From sequence record PX104380.1: DNA of 64,000 nucleotides; one strand, 5' to 3'. Below the pieces are notes generated by a model. That model did not search any database, was not told the origin of the DNA, and worked only from the letters and a program-made list of their open reading frames with translations. Positions 668 through 40,483 of this stretch are shown here, in pieces. Numbering within the stretch: the first letter of the stretch is position 1; each line of letters opens with the position of its first letter. Source of the DNA: a phage. The translations under genes and the position numbers were made by a program.

Positions 668-1551
668 TTCAATTTCCTATTTACATAATAGTTAGACCAG
701 GACCGTACAGCACCCTGATAAGATTCGTCGTTAAACCCATTAGCTACTGCAATTTTACGAAATTTATTATAACTCGGTTTTCCGTAAGCATGCCATAAAG
801 ATTTTAATTCATCTTCATGTTCAATCCAAGTTCCTCTAGCTTTAGATTTTCTAAATTTTGATTTGAATTCCGGTGAATTATTTCTAACAGTTGCTTGAAT
901 TGAAGCTCTCTGTCTTCTTTCAGCATTATTCCATAACTCTTTTTGAGATTTAGAAATTTTTGATTTTACACTTTCTGAATTCATTATATCACTAAACTTT
1001 TTAGCATAACTGCAATCAAGATATTTCAATTTCATCTTATTTGAAAGTTTAAGCTTTTTCTCATCGGTCCAGTGATTCTTCATTGAATTAGATATTTTGT
1101 ATTTTACGTCAGAACTATGTTTGTAACCTTTACGAATACCAACATAATCGGGCGTAATTTCAGATTGCGAAAGCTTTACAATTTTTCCAGTTAAAACATT
1201 TTTATATGTTCCATATCCTTTAGCGCCAATTAAAGTATTTTCATCTGCGTATGCTTTATTAAAATATTTTATATTACTTTTTGCTTTAACTTTTAATTGA
1301 AAAAATCTTTCCAATTTTCTTGGATCTAATATAGTTTCAGCTAAAATTTTGACGGTATATTTAGTGGTTTTAATAAGCTCAAAATATTCATCGCTATAAC
1401 TCGATGACACGCTTCCAGTATAAATCTTTCCAGCTGAATCAATTATATTTGTTCCATCGAAAATTGCGTCAATTTTCGAACCTATATAATAACATGGAAA
1501 AATATTTTTAGCTTCCCGCTCTGGAAAGCTAATAAGATATACTAAATTCAT
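664..1551 (-). mobile_element. GIY-YIG family (seg-like) putative homing endonuclease, 295 aa
   Basis: N-terminal LVYLIS...(11 aa)...YYIGSK matches GIY-(10-11)-YIG spacing; K/R/S-rich C-terminal half typical of DNA-binding tails; sits between gene 45 and rpbA where I recall no gene in T4. Confidence 0.6.
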
Positions 1552-1937
1552 TTATTAAAATCAGCCACAATTGTTTCCGCAACAAGTTGAGCAGCAACAA
1601 TTAGACGTTCATCTGCATTACCGCAATAATCATCTTCAAGACGTTCACCGCATGAAGTCATAATAAATTTAGCGCCAGCATTTAGAGATTCTGTCGTATG
1701 TTTACGCATTAGTTCAATCCATTTATCACTCACTTCACGATCGATAGCTTCATAATACGCATGACGAGCAGGTGCAGATTTAATTTTGTTCTGTATAACT
1801 TCCATTGCGTTATCAGAAAGAGACAAAACCCATGCTCGACGAATTTTATTTTGGTTTTGCGGATTTGATTCAGAACGCACGTGTTTTGGCTGAATATCTT
1901 TTACATCAACAGTATAATTCACAGTAATTTTAGTCAT
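1548..1937 (-). CDS. rpbA: RNA polymerase-binding protein RpbA (129 aa)
   Basis: Size and position between gene 45 and gene 46 as in T4; overlapping stop/start with neighbour. Confidence 0.7.
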
Positions 1938-3873: not shown

Positions 3874-4133
3874 AAAAGATTCCTTTTAATGTATCTTTTA
3901 GACCATTCTATCATATCATCATAATCTAAAAAGTATTCATCAAATTCAGCCATGCAAACAACACCTTGTGCTGCTTTTGATGTGATATAAATTATTCCAA
4001 CATATCTAGAATCTTCTTCGGTATAATCAATATTTGCTATGAATTCATCATTAATGTCAAATGTCGAAAACTTCACTGTATGCATCCTTAATACAAGATA
4101 CAGCCATATCTCGTAATGATTTAGGTGTGTCAT
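3870..4133 (-). CDS. hypothetical protein (46.1-like); start uncertain
   Basis: Minus-strand ORF in the gene 46-47 gap; overlaps next ORF, so true start is probably internal. Confidence 0.45.
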   Translation of the reverse strand: MTHLNHYEIWLYLVLRMHTVKFSTFDINDEFIANIDYTEEDSRYVGIIYITSKAAQGVVCMAEFDEYFLDYDDMIEWSKRYIKRNLL

Positions 4134-4320
4134 TATCTAAAATGTTGAAGTTAAAAGATACAGCCCAGTCAGTGCAGACCGTGACCTTTTTAATACAATT
4201 ATCTTCAACCTCTAGCGGTTCAAACCAATATTCAATAATTTCTTTATGCCCAATATCATCTTTTACTTCGCATTCAAAATGCTGACTCATCATAACATTT
4301 TTAAATTCATCAAAAGTCAT
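4057..4320 (-). CDS. hypothetical protein (46.2-like)
   Basis: Minus-strand ORF directly downstream of gene 47 with 4-nt overlap. Confidence 0.5.
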   Translation of the reverse strand: MTFDEFKNVMMSQHFECEVKDDIGHKEIIEYWFEPLEVEDNCIKKVTVCTDWAVSFNFNILDNDTPKSLRDMAVSCIKDAYSEVFDI

Positions 4321-5336
4321 TGTGTTGCCTCTACATATAACTGATTTGCATATTGAATAAGTGCTTCACGGTCAGAATCAGTGATGTCTGGAATTGCATT
4401 AATGTATTCTTCCATCAACGTCTGAAGCGATTGAACTTCAACTTCTTCACTATCATCTGACTCGACAGAGTTATCAATCTTTGACACAACTCGTAATGAA
4501 TGCACAACTTTTTCTAGTTCAGATTCGAACTTCGTTAGATTTTTGTCTACTTCAGTTACTATAACACGTACTGATAGATTTGTAAAATCTTTATAGTCAA
4601 TTTTTCCTTTAAATGGATAATGAATTCTACGATGCCAGGTAGTATTGTTTGGAATAAATTCCATTCGTTCTGTTTCTGTATCAAACATCCAGAACCCACG
4701 AGGGTCATTCTCGTCACCTGCAGTTAGTGTCCATGGTGTCCCAATATATCTGACATTAGCAGCCTCAGAGATAGTATGGAAGTGACCAGACCACACTTCT
4801 TTATAAGTCTTAAGGAAATCAGGTTCAAGACCATGAGATTTCATTCCTTTATAAAAATAAAATCCGTTCAGTTCCCAGTGACCAACACAAAAAGAAGCAG
4901 ATGAAGTTTTGATGTGCTCAAGAATTTCACCAGTATTTTCTTCACACATCCAAGGAATTAAATCAATTAAACATCCGTCAAAATCTACCGTAGTAGGCTT
5001 ATCATATACTTTAACATTAGGATATTTAGCCAAAAGCTCAGTAGAGGCATTTGGGGTTAAAGTATTTTTAAAGTGCATATCATGGTTTCCTACAACAGTA
5101 TGTAGGGTAATACCGGCATCATCAAGCATTTGAACTATTTCACGAGCGAACTCCATAGTTTTATGCGTGATCGCTTTTCGTACATCAAAAATATCACCAT
5201 ATTGAATCCATACAGTAATTCCATTTTTCTTAGAATATTCTATCGCTTGCTTAATTCCATCAATTTGAATACCGCGAATCCACTCATCATCAGCTTTAAC
5301 GCCTAAATGCCAATCACCTAAATTTAAAATTTTCAT
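4317..5336 (-). CDS. 47: recombination endonuclease subunit gp47 (SbcD/Mre11-like phosphoesterase), 339 aa
   Basis: Calcineurin-like phosphoesterase motifs (DWHLG, GDIFD, GNHD, GHWH); length equals T4 gp47. Confidence 0.95.
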   Translation of the reverse strand: MKILNLGDWHLGVKADDEWIRGIQIDGIKQAIEYSKKNGITVWIQYGDIFDVRKAITHKTMEFAREIVQMLDDAGITLHTVVGNHDMHFKNTLTPNASTELLAKYPNVKVYDKPTTVDFDGCLIDLIPWMCEENTGEILEHIKTSSASFCVGHWELNGFYFYKGMKSHGLEPDFLKTYKEVWSGHFHTISEAANVRYIGTPWTLTAGDENDPRGFWMFDTETERMEFIPNNTTWHRRIHYPFKGKIDYKDFTNLSVRVIVTEVDKNLTKFESELEKVVHSLRVVSKIDNSVESDDSEEVEVQSLQTLMEEYINAIPDITDSDREALIQYANQLYVEATQ

Positions 5337-10796: not shown

Positions 10797-11267
10797 TTAA
10801 TCATGTGTCCACACCCCATCGGTATTTGACCAAAGTCGCTGATTATCTGATCCTCGCCACAGCTTTTTAGTCGGAAGATTTTTCTCATACTTCCCATCAA
10901 TAATAACATCAACATATTTAAGCATTTCTAGTTGTTTAATATCTTCAAACTTATATCCTGTCCACAACCAAATGCTTTTATTGGGATAAAGATTTTTAAT
11001 AGTTTGAACCACAGAGTGAATCACGTCTCTGTTATCAGGATAAAGAGGGTCACCTCCGGTTATAGTTAATCCTTCTATATAATCATTATTCAAACATTCA
11101 ATCAATTGTTCTAGTGTTTCACCAGTGAATGGAATACCATTTCTAGCATTCCATGTTGATTTATTATAACACCCTTCGCATTTATGCAAACAACCTGTAA
11201 CGAAAAGAACGACCCTGCATCCAGGGCCATTCACAAAGCAGCACGGGTATATTCTGTCATAATTCAT
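10797..11267 (-). CDS. nrdG: anaerobic ribonucleotide reductase activating protein NrdG (radical SAM)
   Basis: MNYDRIYPCCFVNGPGCR...CLHKCEGCYN cysteine cluster; start at internal Met gives ATGA overlap with upstream ORF. Confidence 0.85.
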   Translation of the reverse strand: MNYDRIYPCCFVNGPGCRVVLFVTGCLHKCEGCYNKSTWNARNGIPFTGETLEQLIECLNNDYIEGLTITGGDPLYPDNRDVIHSVVQTIKNLYPNKSIWLWTGYKFEDIKQLEMLKYVDVIIDGKYEKNLPTKKLWRGSDNQRLWSNTDGVWTHD

Positions 11268-12094
11268 AATAATATCCAATTTTTCCAAGCTTCATCAGTA
11301 GAATTACAGCGTTTTAGTATAAGATGTCTAGAAACTTTTATGGCATTTGAGCACTTTTTAATTGAATCATATTTAATACCGTCAACTGAAACGGTTTTGC
11401 TCGTTGGAGAAATTTTTCCATACATTGGATTTTTTGAACCAACTTGAAGTCCTTTTAAAGCTTTTGAAAGCTTTTGTCTAGATTCCAATGACATGGGAGA
11501 ATTCTTTTTACCTTCAATAATTCGCTTGCGATGAAGTTCGCGTTCTTCTTCGCTCAAAGAATTGTAATATTTTTTAACACCGTTTGATATAGATAATTTA
11601 TCTTTCTCAGACCGCTCTCCAACTAATTTACTTCTAACATCTTTTCGCTTCATAGCTATGCTTACAGCTTTATTTAAATTTGCTTGATGCTCTGGCGTAC
11701 GTTTATATTTCTTTAAAGCACGTGAAATAGCTATTTTAGTTTCTACTGTTTTCTTTTTACCTTTATTTGCTAAACTATTTTTGTGGCGATGTTCAAGTGT
11801 CTGTTCATAAGCAGTTCCACCTTTTCCACCGGGTTTAATATTATATGTATTTTCTTTTAGACAATACTCTTCGGTTACAAGTTCAGCTTCTTTATCATAC
11901 ATTTGTTTTTCATTATCAAAAACATGTAAAATTTCTTTATTAAAATTTTTTCTACCATATTTTAATAAAGCGGCACGAATCAATGTTCCTGATCCCATAT
12001 AACCGTCATTTATGTTATCGGTGCTATGCGCACCGATATATTCCTTTGAATTAATTATATTTGTTATTTTATAAATTATATAATACCTATGCAT
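11264..12094 (-). mobile_element. GIY-YIG homing endonuclease ORF (276 aa) inserted between nrdD and nrdG
   Basis: N-terminal YYIIYKITNIINSKEYIGAHS is a canonical GIY-YIG motif; basic C-terminal DNA-binding half. Confidence 0.7.
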
Positions 12095-13904
12095 GTTTTA
12101 CTCGTTTTACCATTTCTTTCATTTTACCTAAATTCCATGGAACAACGCTAGGAGTTCCAAGATATCCGCATGTTCTTCTTATGGTATTCATCTTTTTAGG
12201 ATCAGTTTCTCCACAAATAGAACAAACAAATCCGTTTTCAGTAGGAGTCATTTCATGGGTACTTCCACATGTAAAACATTTATCTACTGGCATATTAACA
12301 CCAAAATAATCTAAATGTTGTGCAGCATAATCCCATACGGCCTCAAGACCCTTTAAGTTATTTTTCATATCAGGAAGTTCAACATAAGAAATGTGGCCGC
12401 CTGTCGCAATGAAATGATATGGCGCTTCACGAGAAATCTTTTCAAACGGAGTAACATTTTCTTCTACTGAAACGTGGAAACTGTTAGTGTACCAGCCTTT
12501 ATCGGTAACATCTTTTACACTTCCATATTTTTCGGTATCAAGTTTACAGAAGCGATAACACAGGTTTTCAGCAGGAGTAGAATACAAGCTAAAAGCAAAT
12601 CCGGTTCTTTCTGTCCACTGCTTAAGACGAGCATTCATTTTAGTTAAAATTTCTTGTCCAATATCACGACCGACAAGAATATTCAATTCGTGAATACCAA
12701 TGTATCCTAAGGACACTGAACTTCTACCGTTTTTAAATAACTCAATTATATCATCATCAGGTTTAAGACGAACCCCGAATGCACCTTCTTGGTAAAGAAT
12801 AGGAGCAACAGTCGCTTTAACTCCTTTTAAGGAACTAATTCTACACATCAAAGCTTCAAAACACAGATCCATTCGTTCATTAAATAGCTCAACAAATTTC
12901 TGCTCATTGAATTGAGTTCCAATATAAGAATCTAATGCGATGCGAGGAAGATTCAATGTTACAACACCAAGATTATTACGTCCATCAAGAATTTCATTAC
13001 CGGTTGAATCTTTCCACACACTCAAGAAACTACGACAACCCATTGGAGAAACAGGAGTAGATGAGCCGGTGATAGCTTTATTGTTCTTAGCCGAAATGAT
13101 GTCAGGATACATTCTTTTGCTTGCGCACTCTAGAGCAAGCTGTTTAATATCATAGTTCGGGTCGTCTTTATAAAGATTAACACCTTCTTCAACGAACATA
13201 ACAAGTTTAGGGAAAATAGGAGTTATCCCATCACGACCAAGACCTTTAATACGATTTTTCAGAATTGCTTTCTGAATCATTCGTTCAGTCCAGTCAGTTC
13301 CCGTACCAAATGTAATTGTTACAAAAGGCGTTTGTCCGTTTGAACTAAAGAGAGTATTTACTTCATATTCATAAGCTTGGAATGCATCGTATACATCTTT
13401 TTCTGTTTTAGATTGAGCATAATTCAACGCATCAGCGATTTGCCATTTTTCTGCATCCTCAATATGTTTTGCATAGGTGCGTTTAACATAAGGAGAAAGT
13501 ACTTTATCTACATTCGCAAAAGTCGTTCCGCCGTATTGATGGGAAGCAACCTGTGCAGTAATTTGTGCCATAATTGCAGTAGCAACACCGATTGATTTAG
13601 GAGTTTCAATCTGTGCATTACCAAGCTTAAATCCGTTCTCAAGCATTCCTTTTAAATCTACTAAACAACAATTAGTAAATGGAAGAGCAGGGGAATAATC
13701 AATATCATGGAAATGAATAATTCCGCTTTCATGCGCTTTCATAATAAAAGACGGGACCATATTTTTGGCAATGTGTTTAGACACAATACCAGCCATAAGG
13801 TCCCGTTGAGTTGGAAAAACACGAGAATCTTTATTAGCATTCTCGTTTAAAAGGTCTTTATTAGTTTTATGAATCAATCCTTCAATTTCTTTTTCAATTG
13901 TCAT
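12087..13904 (-). CDS. nrdD: anaerobic (class III) ribonucleoside-triphosphate reductase NrdD, 605 aa, uninterrupted
   Basis: Length and sequence recognised as T4 NrdD; C-terminal CxxC zinc site and glycyl-radical region; no intron interrupts the ORF. Confidence 0.9.
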   Translation of the reverse strand: MTIEKEIEGLIHKTNKDLLNENANKDSRVFPTQRDLMAGIVSKHIAKNMVPSFIMKAHESGIIHFHDIDYSPALPFTNCCLVDLKGMLENGFKLGNAQIETPKSIGVATAIMAQITAQVASHQYGGTTFANVDKVLSPYVKRTYAKHIEDAEKWQIADALNYAQSKTEKDVYDAFQAYEYEVNTLFSSNGQTPFVTITFGTGTDWTERMIQKAILKNRIKGLGRDGITPIFPKLVMFVEEGVNLYKDDPNYDIKQLALECASKRMYPDIISAKNNKAITGSSTPVSPMGCRSFLSVWKDSTGNEILDGRNNLGVVTLNLPRIALDSYIGTQFNEQKFVELFNERMDLCFEALMCRISSLKGVKATVAPILYQEGAFGVRLKPDDDIIELFKNGRSSVSLGYIGIHELNILVGRDIGQEILTKMNARLKQWTERTGFAFSLYSTPAENLCYRFCKLDTEKYGSVKDVTDKGWYTNSFHVSVEENVTPFEKISREAPYHFIATGGHISYVELPDMKNNLKGLEAVWDYAAQHLDYFGVNMPVDKCFTCGSTHEMTPTENGFVCSICGETDPKKMNTIRRTCGYLGTPSVVPWNLGKMKEMVKRVKHA

Positions 13905-21687: not shown

Positions 21688-22407
21688 TTAGGATTCTTCT
21701 AAATGTCTTTTCTGAAAAGTTGATACCATACTACGATACGGTTCATTTGGATACCCGTGTTTTATAGCTTCCTTTGTAAATTTTCTCCATCCATATTTAG
21801 TTTCTTTCCAAAGCTCGAATAATTCATCTTCATACTGCCATATAGTTAAATGAGAACGCTTTGCAGCTTTAATTCCATTAATATGCTTTTCTTTTACTAC
21901 AGGATTGCTTAGTTTCTTTTTAATAATATTACTAACTTTTCTAACAAAAACTGGGTCCTTATATCGTTGCGAAGTTTTTATTGAAGTGTTTAATTTAGCT
22001 TCCGGTGTGGATGTGACCTCTTTCATCTTTTTCTTCATATGCTGTATATGATTAGGATTTTTCCATAAATTTATAGAATGCTTTTTGCATTTTATCCTAG
22101 TTTCATCTGCAACCTTTCCTCCTTCACCTCCGTATGACAGGTTAACACAGTTTTTTCCATATTTCAATTTACCTGCCATGATATATAATATTTCAGCTTG
22201 TACCATTTTATCATAATTATCAAAAACTTCTAAAACCGTTTTTGATAATATGTGGTCATTTGACACTTTTACACGTTCTATATAATTTCCACTACCAACA
22301 TACGAATCATTGATGTTATTAGTTATATGTCGACCATAATAGTATTTCTTAATACCTGTCTTTAAATTTAATATTTCAGTTTTATAGATAGTAAAATATT
22401 TTTTCAT
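21688..22407 (-). mobile_element. divergent GIY-YIG-like putative endonuclease (239 aa)
   Basis: IYKTE...KYYYGRHITNNINDSYVGSG parallels KEYIGAHSTDNINDGYMGSG of the ORF at 11264-12094; basic C-terminal half. Confidence 0.4.
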
Positions 22408-39465: not shown

Positions 39466-39541
39466 TGGTCGAGGCAGTAGGGATCGAACCTACGACCTAG
39501 GACTTAGAAGGTCCTTGCTCTTCCTTCTGAGCTATGCCCCG
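39466..39541 (-). tRNA. tRNA-Arg (anticodon UCU)
   Basis: Manual fold: acceptor CGGGGCA/TGCCTCG, anticodon loop CTTCTAA, T-arm GGTTCGATCC, encoded CCA. Confidence 0.85.
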
Positions 39542-39545
39542 TAAT

Positions 39546-39621
39546 TGGGGTGACCGATGGGAGTCGAACCCATGACTACGAGAATCACAATCTCGAGTTC
39601 TACCAACTGAACTACGGCCAC
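39546..39621 (-). tRNA. tRNA-His (anticodon GUG)
   Basis: Manual fold: acceptor GTGGCCG/CGGTCAC, discriminator C73, anticodon loop TTGTGAT. Confidence 0.8.
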
Positions 39622-39735
39622 ATTAATACCTACTCCAACAATCAAGATGTCTTCACACGAAATTAAGAGAAGAGTGATCAGTTCAACCCCTATAATCGCG
39701 TCAAGTAGATATTAATGTGACAGTTGTCACAAATT

Positions 39736-39810
39736 TGGCGGACGTGATAGGATTCGAACCTATAACCAATCGCTTAACAGGCGATCGCTCTGCCATTGAG
39801 CTACACATCC
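39736..39810 (-). tRNA. tRNA-Asn (anticodon GUU)
   Basis: Manual fold: acceptor GGATGTG/CACGTCC, anticodon stem ATCGC/GCGAT, loop CTGTTAA. Confidence 0.8.
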
Positions 39811-39814
39811 AAAT

Positions 39815-39901
39815 TGGTGGGGAGTGGTGGAGTCGAACCACCCGAGTCGCAATGACAATGAATTTACAGTCCACACCGCTACCTCTACGGGATAACTCCC
39901 C
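39815..39901 (-). tRNA. tRNA-Tyr (anticodon GUA), long variable arm
   Basis: Manual fold: acceptor GGGGAGT/ACTCCCC, anticodon loop CTGTAAA, 87 nt. Confidence 0.7.
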
Positions 39902-39910
39902 AAATTAATT

Positions 39911-39985
39911 TGGTGGCCCTGGGTGGAATTGAACCACCATCTGGCGATTATGAGTCGCTTGCTTGAACCTTCCAGCTACAGGGCC
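39911..39985 (-). tRNA. tRNA with CAU anticodon (Ile-lysidine type as in T4, or Met)
   Basis: Manual fold: acceptor GGCCCTG/CAGGGCC, anticodon loop CTCATAA. Confidence 0.75.
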
Positions 39986-39986
39986 T

Positions 39987-40062
39987 TGGTGCTGATTAAC
40001 GGAATCGAACCGCCGACCTTCTCATTACAAGTGAGTTGCTCTACCTACTGAGCTAAATCAGC
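39987..40062 (-). tRNA. tRNA-Thr (anticodon UGU)
   Basis: Manual fold: acceptor GCTGATT/AATCAGC, anticodon loop CTTGTAA. Confidence 0.8.
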
Positions 40063-40067
40063 AAAAC

Positions 40068-40157
40068 TGGCGGAGGTGATAGGATTCGAACCTATGAATC
40101 GCCGGAGCGACTGCCGGTTTTCAAGACCGGTGCATTCAACCACTCTGCCACACCTCC
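40068..40157 (-). tRNA. tRNA-Ser (anticodon UGA), long variable arm
   Basis: Manual fold: acceptor GGAGGTG/CACCTCC, anticodon stem CCGGT/ACCGG, loop CTTGAAA, 90 nt. Confidence 0.8.
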
Positions 40158-40159
40158 AG

Positions 40160-40233
40160 TCTCCATACAAGGATTTGAACCTTGGACCTCCTGATCCCAA
40201 ATCAGGCGCTCTACCAAACTGAGCTACACGGAG
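40160..40233 (-). tRNA. tRNA-Pro (anticodon UGG), 3' CCA not encoded
   Basis: Manual fold: acceptor CTCCGTG/TATGGAG, anticodon stem CCTGA/TCAGG, loop TTTGGGA. Confidence 0.8.
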
Positions 40234-40243
40234 TAAATTAAAT

Positions 40244-40317
<74 letters not shown>

Positions 40318-40322
40318 AAATT

Positions 40323-40409
40323 TGGTGCGAGAAGTGGGACTCGAACCCACAAGGAAATCATTCCGCAGCATTTTAAGTGCTGTGCCTTTACCAATTTGAC
40401 CATTCTCGC
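40323..40409 (-). tRNA. tRNA-Leu (anticodon UAA), long variable arm
   Basis: Manual fold: acceptor GCGAGAA/TTCTCGC, anticodon stem CAGCA/TGCTG, loop CTTAAAA. Confidence 0.85.
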
Positions 40410-40410
40410 G

Positions 40411-40483
40411 CTGGGAATAAAGGACTCGAACCTTTGCATCCTGGAATCAAAATCCAGTGCCTTACCAACTTGGCTAATTCCCA
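40411..40483 (-). tRNA. tRNA-Gln (anticodon UUG), 3' CCA not encoded
   Basis: Manual fold: acceptor TGGGAAT/ATTCCCA (U1-A72), anticodon stem CTGGA/TCCAG, loop TTTTGAT. Confidence 0.85.

Follow-up and report, generated by a model that had tools for sequence, protein, structure and literature searches.

Which gene lies between nrdD and nrdG in this phage, is it still intact, and how does it relate to the group I intron that splits nrdD in T4? We addressed these questions in a 64,000-nt stretch of phage DNA (sequence record PX104380.1), hereafter the window, in which a preliminary description made from the letters alone had reported, between the two genes and next to an uninterrupted nrdD, a GIY-YIG homing endonuclease gene of the free-standing kind. 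We found that the open reading frame is segH, that it is intact, and that it belongs to the free-standing GIY-YIG homing endonuclease genes known from T-even phages (Tequatrovirus). We assign a probability of roughly 0.93 to the full reading, in which segH identity is combined with homing by cleavage and with an nrdD tail that would be immune to it.

The presence of segH at nrdD/nrdG of T6-type phages is itself already known, since 2005. Sandegren, Nord and Sjöberg (2005, NAR 33:6203) reportedly named segH as the replacement of mobC between these two genes. The swap of MobC for the GIY-YIG gene segH at this site in some relatives is also described elsewhere (bioRxiv 10.1101/2022.08.31.505936). 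That SegH cuts DNA site-specifically close to its gene and homes when phages infect together is reported for the 2005 study, according to its title and to papers that cite it (PMC2988022; bioRxiv 10.1101/2022.08.31.505936).

Position and identity of segH

The locus comprises three overlapping genes, all on the minus strand:

10797..11267, minus strand: nrdG, anaerobic ribonucleotide reductase activating subunit, directly downstream of segH, in agreement with the T6 annotation
11264..11267, minus strand: overlap of the segH stop and the nrdG start, ATGA, with the same layout in the T6 annotation
11264..12094, minus strand: segH coding sequence, an intact open reading frame with an ATG start, 276 codons plus stop
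12087..12094, minus strand: overlap of the segH start and the nrdD stop, 8 nt, ATGCATAG
12087..13904, minus strand: nrdD, anaerobic ribonucleotide reductase large subunit, one uninterrupted open reading frame of 605 codons

The window belongs to a T6-like Tequatrovirus in which segH is present and the nrdD intron is absent. Given that the surrounding genome is only about 96% identical to T6 (compared over bases 1-25000), the phage is a different isolate from T6. Genes for gp55, nrdH, gp49 (endonuclease VII) and nrdC lie nearby. The assignment of the two flanking genes rests on an end-to-end match of nrdD to Pfam NRDD (6.6e-172), accompanied by a Gly_radical match, and on matches of nrdG to Fer4_12 (8.3e-49) and Radical_SAM. 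The program-made listing extends the nrdG frame to a TTG at 11288, and T6, T2 and T4 annotate the ATG equivalent to 11267 as its start. As read from the sequence, the segH ATG occupies 12094-12092 and the nrdD stop TAG 12089-12087, while the segH TGA occupies 11266-11264 and the nrdG ATG 11267-11265, confirming the overlapping stop and start codons described earlier on both sides of the gene.

The translation of the 11264..12094 frame begins MHRYYIIYKITNIINSKEYIGAHS. At the DNA level, the frame is 99.3% identical to the annotated T6 segH (MH550421), which sits in the same nrdD/nrdG slot, and across the named segH genes of T6, RB3 and LZ2 the nucleotide identity is 98.6-99.3% at equal length (276 aa), with overlaps of identical layout at both junctions. 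Records AY262137 (T6), AY262138 (RB3) and AY262139 (LZ2) annotate a "SegH homing endonuclease" between a partial nrdD and nrdG, and the gene order nrdD, segH, nrdG of the window is annotated likewise in T6 and LZ2. The protein also matches phrog_314, homing endonuclease, in PHROGs (8e-59), and 328 homologues were found with E <= 1e-3, many of them with PF01541 or PF19835. Agreement on this scale goes well past what chance could produce.

Architecture and integrity of the SegH protein

Three protein regions could be delimited within the gene:

11816..12094, minus strand: GIY-YIG catalytic domain, about residues 1-93, with Y8, Y19-I20-G21, H23, E69/E71 and N85
11411..11497, minus strand: NUMOD3 DNA-binding motif, residues 200-228, in a basic helical linker; PF07460 at 30.4 bits (cut-off 20.4)
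11276..11419, minus strand: C-terminal I-TevI-type helix-turn-helix DNA-binding module, residues 226-273, matched by Foldseek to 1i3j_A

The GIY motif corresponds to I6-I7-Y8 and the YIG motif to Y19-I20-G21, so that about 11 residues separate the tyrosines of the two motifs. In an alignment of 26-27 homologues of 34-90% identity, the invariant columns are Y8, T11, Y19, G21, H23, T25, D30, Y32, G34-S35-G36, G47, F51, E69, V73, Y84, N85, G89, G90 and G92; less strictly kept are I20, which is V in a few homologues, and E71, conserved in at least 90%. The K/R-rich C-terminus of the preliminary description was borne out by the charge distribution, with 24% K+R and a pI of 10.2 over residues 96-276 vs. 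14% and 7.8 over residues 1-95. Two further Pfam matches stayed below threshold, one to the SegE-type GIY-YIG domain and one, at the C-terminus, to the I-TevI DNA-binding domain PF20987 (21.2 bits, cut-off 27); no HNH Pfam match was found in SegH.

Searches of the PDB by sequence were of little help: phmmer with SegH returned chance matches only, none of them significant, and a profile search placed I-TevI on top at E = 0.25. For this reason, hhalign, structure prediction and Foldseek were used to characterize the fold. The SegH family profile aligned with the I-TevI catalytic domain at 91.8% probability (hhalign), setting Y8 on Y6 and Y19 on Y17. In the alignment from the profile search, the segment with E69, E71 and N85 lies against ERENFW...YNI of I-TevI, which makes E69 or E71 the candidate for the catalytic Glu (E75 in I-TevI) and N85 the counterpart of the downstream Asn (N90). 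The AlphaFold model had a mean pLDDT of 82, reaching 91-98 over residues 1-90 and about 90 or higher for most of residues 231-276, with the GIY and YIG motifs carried on strands 4-12 and 18-25. Its top Foldseek hit in the PDB was 1mk0, the I-TevI catalytic domain (probability 1.00, target TM-score 0.64); 1i3j_A, the DNA-bound I-TevI DNA-binding domain, was also among the top hits (probability 1.00). As modelled, SegH is thus a GIY-YIG alpha/beta nuclease fold with a NUMOD3 linker and an I-TevI-like helix-turn-helix.

Homing endonuclease genes do decay, and the reading frame could in principle be an inactive or decaying remnant that no longer cuts. Pointing in this direction are a segH in phage PD112 that has lost 577 nt internally, a valine at position 117 that is private to the window allele, with E in the other three of the four SegH sequences compared, and the lack of a clear counterpart to R27 of I-TevI. 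The last point concerns I-TevI residues 23-31, which include R27 and fall in an insertion in the hhalign alignment with SegH; R40 of SegH lies in the predicted helix 37-46, in a column that varies between R, K, Q and L among homologues. T4 SegB and SegH share one pattern at this segment, which is shorter in the Seg-type subfamily, and SegB is reported to be active (reference list of PMC13096335). Given that SegB has the identical pattern, we did not take the absence of a clear R27 equivalent as a loss of function. Against a remnant stand the full-length frame, the retention of all residues invariant in the family, and the high confidence of the catalytic domain model. Moreover, only 3 of 276 residues differ from LZ2 SegH (ABI48951; K115R, V117E, V158A) and 3 of 276 from T6 SegH (A42S, V117E, E118K); A42S affects a variable column of the first helix, the other changes lie in the linker region, and neither set touches an invariant column. 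We therefore consider decay very improbable, and segH is treated below as an intact gene.

Relationship to the nrdD intron and to other phage endonucleases

The uninterrupted state of nrdD held up: the gene is a single 605-codon frame, and an Rfam scan of the whole window found no group I intron, while the identical scan detected the intron in nrdD of T4 and EC128, which served as positive controls. T4 nrdD is indeed split by a group I intron, which encodes I-TevII, in line with the preliminary description. Mapping of the exon boundaries by comparison with T4 and EC128 put the vacant insertion site between nucleotides 538 and 539 of nrdD, that is, between window positions 13367 and 13366, about 1.27 kb from segH. 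At this site the window carries the intron-less T2/T6 allele, from which T4 and EC128 differ by seven silent changes clustered around the site, one just 5' of it and the other six in the roughly 25 nt on its 3' side.

What did not survive is the proposed contrast in which a free-standing endonuclease gene takes the place of an intron-borne one. In T4, the nrdD intron with I-TevII coexists with a free-standing gene, mobC, in the slot that segH occupies here, and segH and the nrdD intron occur together in EC128, FL23, FL44, SYGD1 and GRNsp7. The contrast fails because segH and the intron are independent elements and phages of the EC128 type carry both. It had also been raised that T4 might have the same gene at this position; T4 carries mobC instead, and it is T6 that does carry segH.

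A closer tie between the two elements would exist if segH were an nrdD intron endonuclease that had escaped, or if it were linked to the intron by mobilisation in trans, as in the case of MobE, which mobilises I-TevIII in trans. SegH does give a match to TIGR01453, "group I intron endonuclease", although at 46 bits it stays below the cut-off of 56, and it shows a weak similarity to I-TevII (30% over 128 aa, E = 1e-5); the phages with both segH and the intron also fit such a tie. However, the window has no Rfam intron while the T4 and EC128 controls were positive, segH is 1.27 kb away from the insertion site, nrdD is unsplit in most segH phages among the matches listed, and the block of nrdD that is linked to segH (described below) lies at the 3' end of the gene, away from the intron site. 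An origin from, or dependence on, the intron thus appears extremely improbable, and we retain segH as an independent free-standing gene.

I-TevI and I-TevII resemble SegH in layout, since in each of them a linker joins a GIY-YIG nuclease to a NUMOD/helix-turn-helix DNA-binding domain, and their sequence similarity to it is weak. They differ from SegH in being encoded by group I introns, I-TevI by the td intron and I-TevII by the T4 nrdD intron; I-TevII targets nrdD, at the site 1.27 kb from segH. The catalytic domain of T4 SegB is 46% identical to that of SegH (E = 2e-30), the two having in common the motif YKITN..N.K.YIG.HST.N..DGYMGSG...E..VTEE...YN.K.GG.GG. The two T-even phage genes are free-standing alike but occupy different loci, that of SegB in the tRNA cluster and that of SegH at nrdD/nrdG. 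The suggested alignment to the Seg proteins succeeded for the catalytic domain of SegB, but the DNA-binding halves of SegB and SegH showed no significant similarity, implying different target specificities. In an unrelated phage contig of 175 kb, too, nrdD is followed directly by a gene for a SegH-like protein of 47% identity.

T4 MobC, in the same slot as segH, is a protein of 210 aa of the HNH type, matching Pfam PF01844, and BLASTP of SegH against MobC gave no match. Like segH, mobC forms a cassette that lacks a promoter and shares overlaps with the adjoining genes. A review places it among the free-standing HNH genes of T4, at nrdG/nrdD, and gives the activity of MobC as not determined (PMC2988022, Table 1).

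A diverged nrdD tail accompanies segH

The end of nrdD that adjoins segH differs sharply between phages with and without the gene, and defines one further feature:

12087..12165, minus strand: recoded nrdD 3' end linked to segH, the last 79 nt of the gene, encoding the residues that follow the glycyl-radical motif RRTCGYLG

We compared the last 1275 nt of nrdD between the segH-carrying window, T6, LZ2 and EC128 and the segH-less T2, ESh31, T4 and Paracelsus. All columns that separate the two groups (30/30) lie inside the last 79 nt, with 0 in the 1194 nt before. Between the window and T2, 32 of 81 nt differ at the 3' end (40%) vs. 57 of 1194 upstream (4.8%). In the protein, the tail changes from NPNERGFNLGKNKEIMHRVKHQ in segH-less phages to TPSVVPWNLGKMKEMVKRVKHA in the segH-linked block. 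Misalignment as the source of these differences was ruled out, since the tails are of equal length and in frame and the pattern ...NLGK.KE...RVKH.* is kept.

The block was found in 81 records, in 71 of which it is contiguous with intact segH, in 2 (PD112) with a deleted segH, and in 8 it stands alone; conversely, every full-length segH record (71/71) carries it. On the other side of segH, the first 120 nt of nrdG contain no fixed differences between phages with and without segH. LZ2, which has segH, has a T2-type nrdG start. On these two grounds, the 5' end of nrdG was rejected as the main target or immunity determinant.

From this distribution, we infer that the nrdD tail is a cleavage-resistant allele that moves with segH, and that the target of SegH in naive phages would lie at or near the 3' end of nrdD. 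This reading fits the general rule that the cleavage sites of free-standing phage endonucleases lie near the genes that encode them, in sequence that is conserved and critical for function (PMC2988022). The tail block could also simply be foreign DNA brought in together with segH, in which case it would not have to include the target.

Occupants of the nrdD/nrdG junction

The junction was surveyed with a query of 500 nt from the nrdG side and 500 nt from the nrdD side, which matched 846 phage records, 767 of them covering most of it; the occupancy counts were taken from the search summaries. In the majority of records the junction is empty, with nrdD and nrdG abutting through an ATGA overlap and spanning 1008 nt (e.g., T2 and ESh31). 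Intact segH has the patchy distribution of a mobile element, with 71 carriers among about 770-850 related phage records, and PD112 has a segH with a 577-nt internal deletion. The mobC gene was found in 32 records; its copies share at least 99% identity, and many come from re-sequencing of T4. A third occupant, an HNH gene of 279 aa, was also found in 32 records (Paracelsus, Ozark and PST, and, at about 85% identity, Klebsiella phages). The insertion points differ: segH abuts the nrdD stop, while mobC and the 279-aa HNH gene sit a few codons into nrdG. The duplicated NrdG starts, MNYDRIY... and MNYDRFYPCDFVN..., are thus explained by the insertion of both HNH genes inside nrdG.

The records that have the diverged nrdD tail alone connect these occupants. 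All those checked (215Ecol030PP, BCPShso_001, BCPEco_001, SHFML-11 and ELT1) carry mobC. In SHFML-11, the junction reads ...AAACATGCATAGG before and GTTAAACACCAATG after a crossover at the 10-nt CATGCATAGG, a sequence that the start region of segH has in common with nrdD tails of the T2/T4 type.

Taken jointly, these patterns allow a broader proposal, which we advance tentatively and at somewhat less than even odds: the mobile unit would be segH plus a 79-nt immunity tail, its target would overlap critical nrdD sequence, three unrelated endonuclease genes would contest the junction, and chimeras of the SHFML-11 type would record displacement. If true, such chimeras, with a segH-type tail next to mobC and microhomology at CATGCATAGG, would be a record of one endonuclease gene displacing another.

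Expression and proposed mechanism of homing

Neither a TATAAATA late promoter nor a complete MotA box was found upstream of or within segH. A promoter of its own for segH, and a promoter for nrdG inside segH, were both dropped as candidates after no convincing one was found. The lack of a dedicated promoter favours co-transcription and translational coupling to nrdD, the latter being likely on the basis of the overlapping codons. Several T4 seg and mob genes are also promoter-less cassettes (PMC2988022).

In the mechanism that we propose, segH would be transcribed together with nrdD and nrdG, and ribosomes that finish nrdD would probably re-initiate on its overlapping ATG and so make small amounts of SegH. 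During mixed infection with a segH-less phage, SegH would cut both strands of the other genome close to where nrdD meets nrdG, and recombinational repair would copy segH and its flanks into the cut genome, a process known as intron-less homing and also observed as localised marker exclusion. The phage's own genome would be protected by the diverged last 79 nt of nrdD, which always accompany segH. Of the elements of this mechanism, DNA cleavage and homing by SegH come from the literature; the present analysis established what the gene is, that it is intact, its domain layout, its place, and its association with the diverged block.

SegH might instead be retained mainly for the benefit of the phage, either by excluding the nrdD-nrdG markers of rivals or by acting as a DNA-binding regulator of the operon. 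Localised marker exclusion is known for free-standing T4 endonucleases and I-TevI is also a repressor (PMC2988022), and segH is embedded in the operon by codon overlaps on both sides. However, the junction is empty in most related phages, and derivatives in which segH is deleted or replaced exist, so retention chiefly for the phage's benefit seems unlikely. This idea also concerns selection and not mechanism, and is compatible with homing, which remains our preferred reading of what SegH does.

Relevance for annotation and for endonuclease gene evolution

Three observations, namely the linked nrdD tail, the competition of three genes for a single junction, and the existence of chimeras and deletion derivatives, illustrate how free-standing homing endonuclease genes can compete for a site and move along with a putatively resistant allele of their target. 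They do not constitute a new kind of system, and part of our reading of the tail and of the junction may already stand in the 2005 SegH paper. The value of the present analysis is mainly for annotation. The gene is annotated in dozens of genomes, and several records give segH a wrong label, namely segD, hypothetical protein or group I intron endonuclease.

Apparent exchange of endonuclease genes between nrdD and nrdG

In Shigella phage SHFML-11 (comparison sequence L008, 2100..2225), the recoded nrdD tail linked to the GIY-YIG homing endonuclease gene segH runs into 13 nt of T4-type nrdD end, after which comes mobC, the free-standing HNH endonuclease gene found in this slot in T4; chimeric junctions of segH tail and mobC are also present in 215Ecol030PP, BCPShso_001, BCPEco_001, and ELT1. 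Their crossover is a 10-nt microhomology, CATGCATAGG, present in the segH start region and also, in another reading frame, in the nrdD tail of T2 and T4. These junctions look like the replacement of one endonuclease gene by another. Escherichia phage PD112 (L012, about 1500..1715) has a segH gene with a 577-nt internal deletion, equivalent to window 11379..11955, and retains the segH-linked nrdD tail despite this loss. The copy is decaying, a stage to be expected in the life cycle of homing endonuclease genes.

A third, unrelated gene occupies the nrdD/nrdG slot in Escherichia phage Paracelsus:

L007 1494..2333: HNH-type gene, 279 aa

Similarity of the encoded protein to MobC, at 38% identity, is confined to the surroundings of the HNH motif, and the first 13 codons of the gene (MNYDRFYPCDFVN) duplicate the start of nrdG. 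The gene occurs in 32 records; those from Klebsiella phages are about 85% identical, and Yersinia phage PST has it under the label 'mobC'.

The first 15 codons of nrdG (window 11225..11267) are polymorphic, with a start reading ...DRIYPCCFVN in the window, T6, EC128, Paracelsus, and SHFML-11, and ...DRFYPCDFVN in T2, ESh31, and LZ2. Given that this polymorphic start coincides with the place where HNH genes are inserted, the variant may be a resistance allele against mob-type endonucleases. About 35 nt past the start codon, the coding sequence of nrdG contains a terminator-like element:

11207..11232 (-): terminator-like hairpin, G+C-rich, then a T-run

By our scan, the region holds 6 terminator-like sites, with 1.8 expected.

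Vacant intron site in nrdD

At the vacant intron site (window 13340..13367), nrdD carries the T2/T6 allele GAATATGAAGTAAATACTCTCTTT, while the intron-bearing T4 and EC128 have GAGT|ATGAAGTGAACACGTTATTC at the same position. Seven silent differences between the window and T4/EC128 cluster at the insertion site, one on its 5' side and six on its 3' side, a pattern to be expected from either co-converted exon sequence or variation in the site of I-TevII, the endonuclease of the T4 nrdD intron.

Other GIY-YIG genes and segH annotation

The window has a further Seg-like reading frame:

21688..22407 (-): second Seg-like GIY-YIG ORF, 239 aa, protein MKKYFTIYK...YYYGRHITNNINDSYVGSG...

Its N-terminal domain is 30% identical to that of SegH (E = 6e-13), and a Pfam search gave no match at E <= 0.01. 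The ORF is carried at 97.5-100% identity by 67 phage records, in which nrdC.10 adjoins it and it is labelled segE, 'site-specific intron-like DNA endonuclease', or RB32ORF093c. The preliminary description had counted segH as a second GIY-YIG gene, and this ORF is probably the first one that it meant.

In T4, segB lies inside the tRNA cluster. A phmmer search for a Seg-like ORF at the tRNA cluster of the window detected none:

39469..40483 (-): cluster of 10 tRNA genes

Labels of segH in other records are inconsistent: the gene is annotated as 'segD' in RB3, RB5, RB6, RB7, RB9, and RB10 (KM606994-9), and as 'group I intron endonuclease' in KAW3E185.

A different large phage, represented by ENA contig NODE_69 (L009; 175,685 bp), encodes two GIY-YIG genes, one SegH-like and one SegE-type:

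L009 432..1511 and 4001..4828: the two GIY-YIG genes

The SegH-like gene (47% identity) directly follows nrdD, which encodes an ATP-cone type NrdD of 705 aa, with nrdG about 2 kb further downstream. The SegE-type gene (359 aa) lies upstream, two genes away from nrdD.
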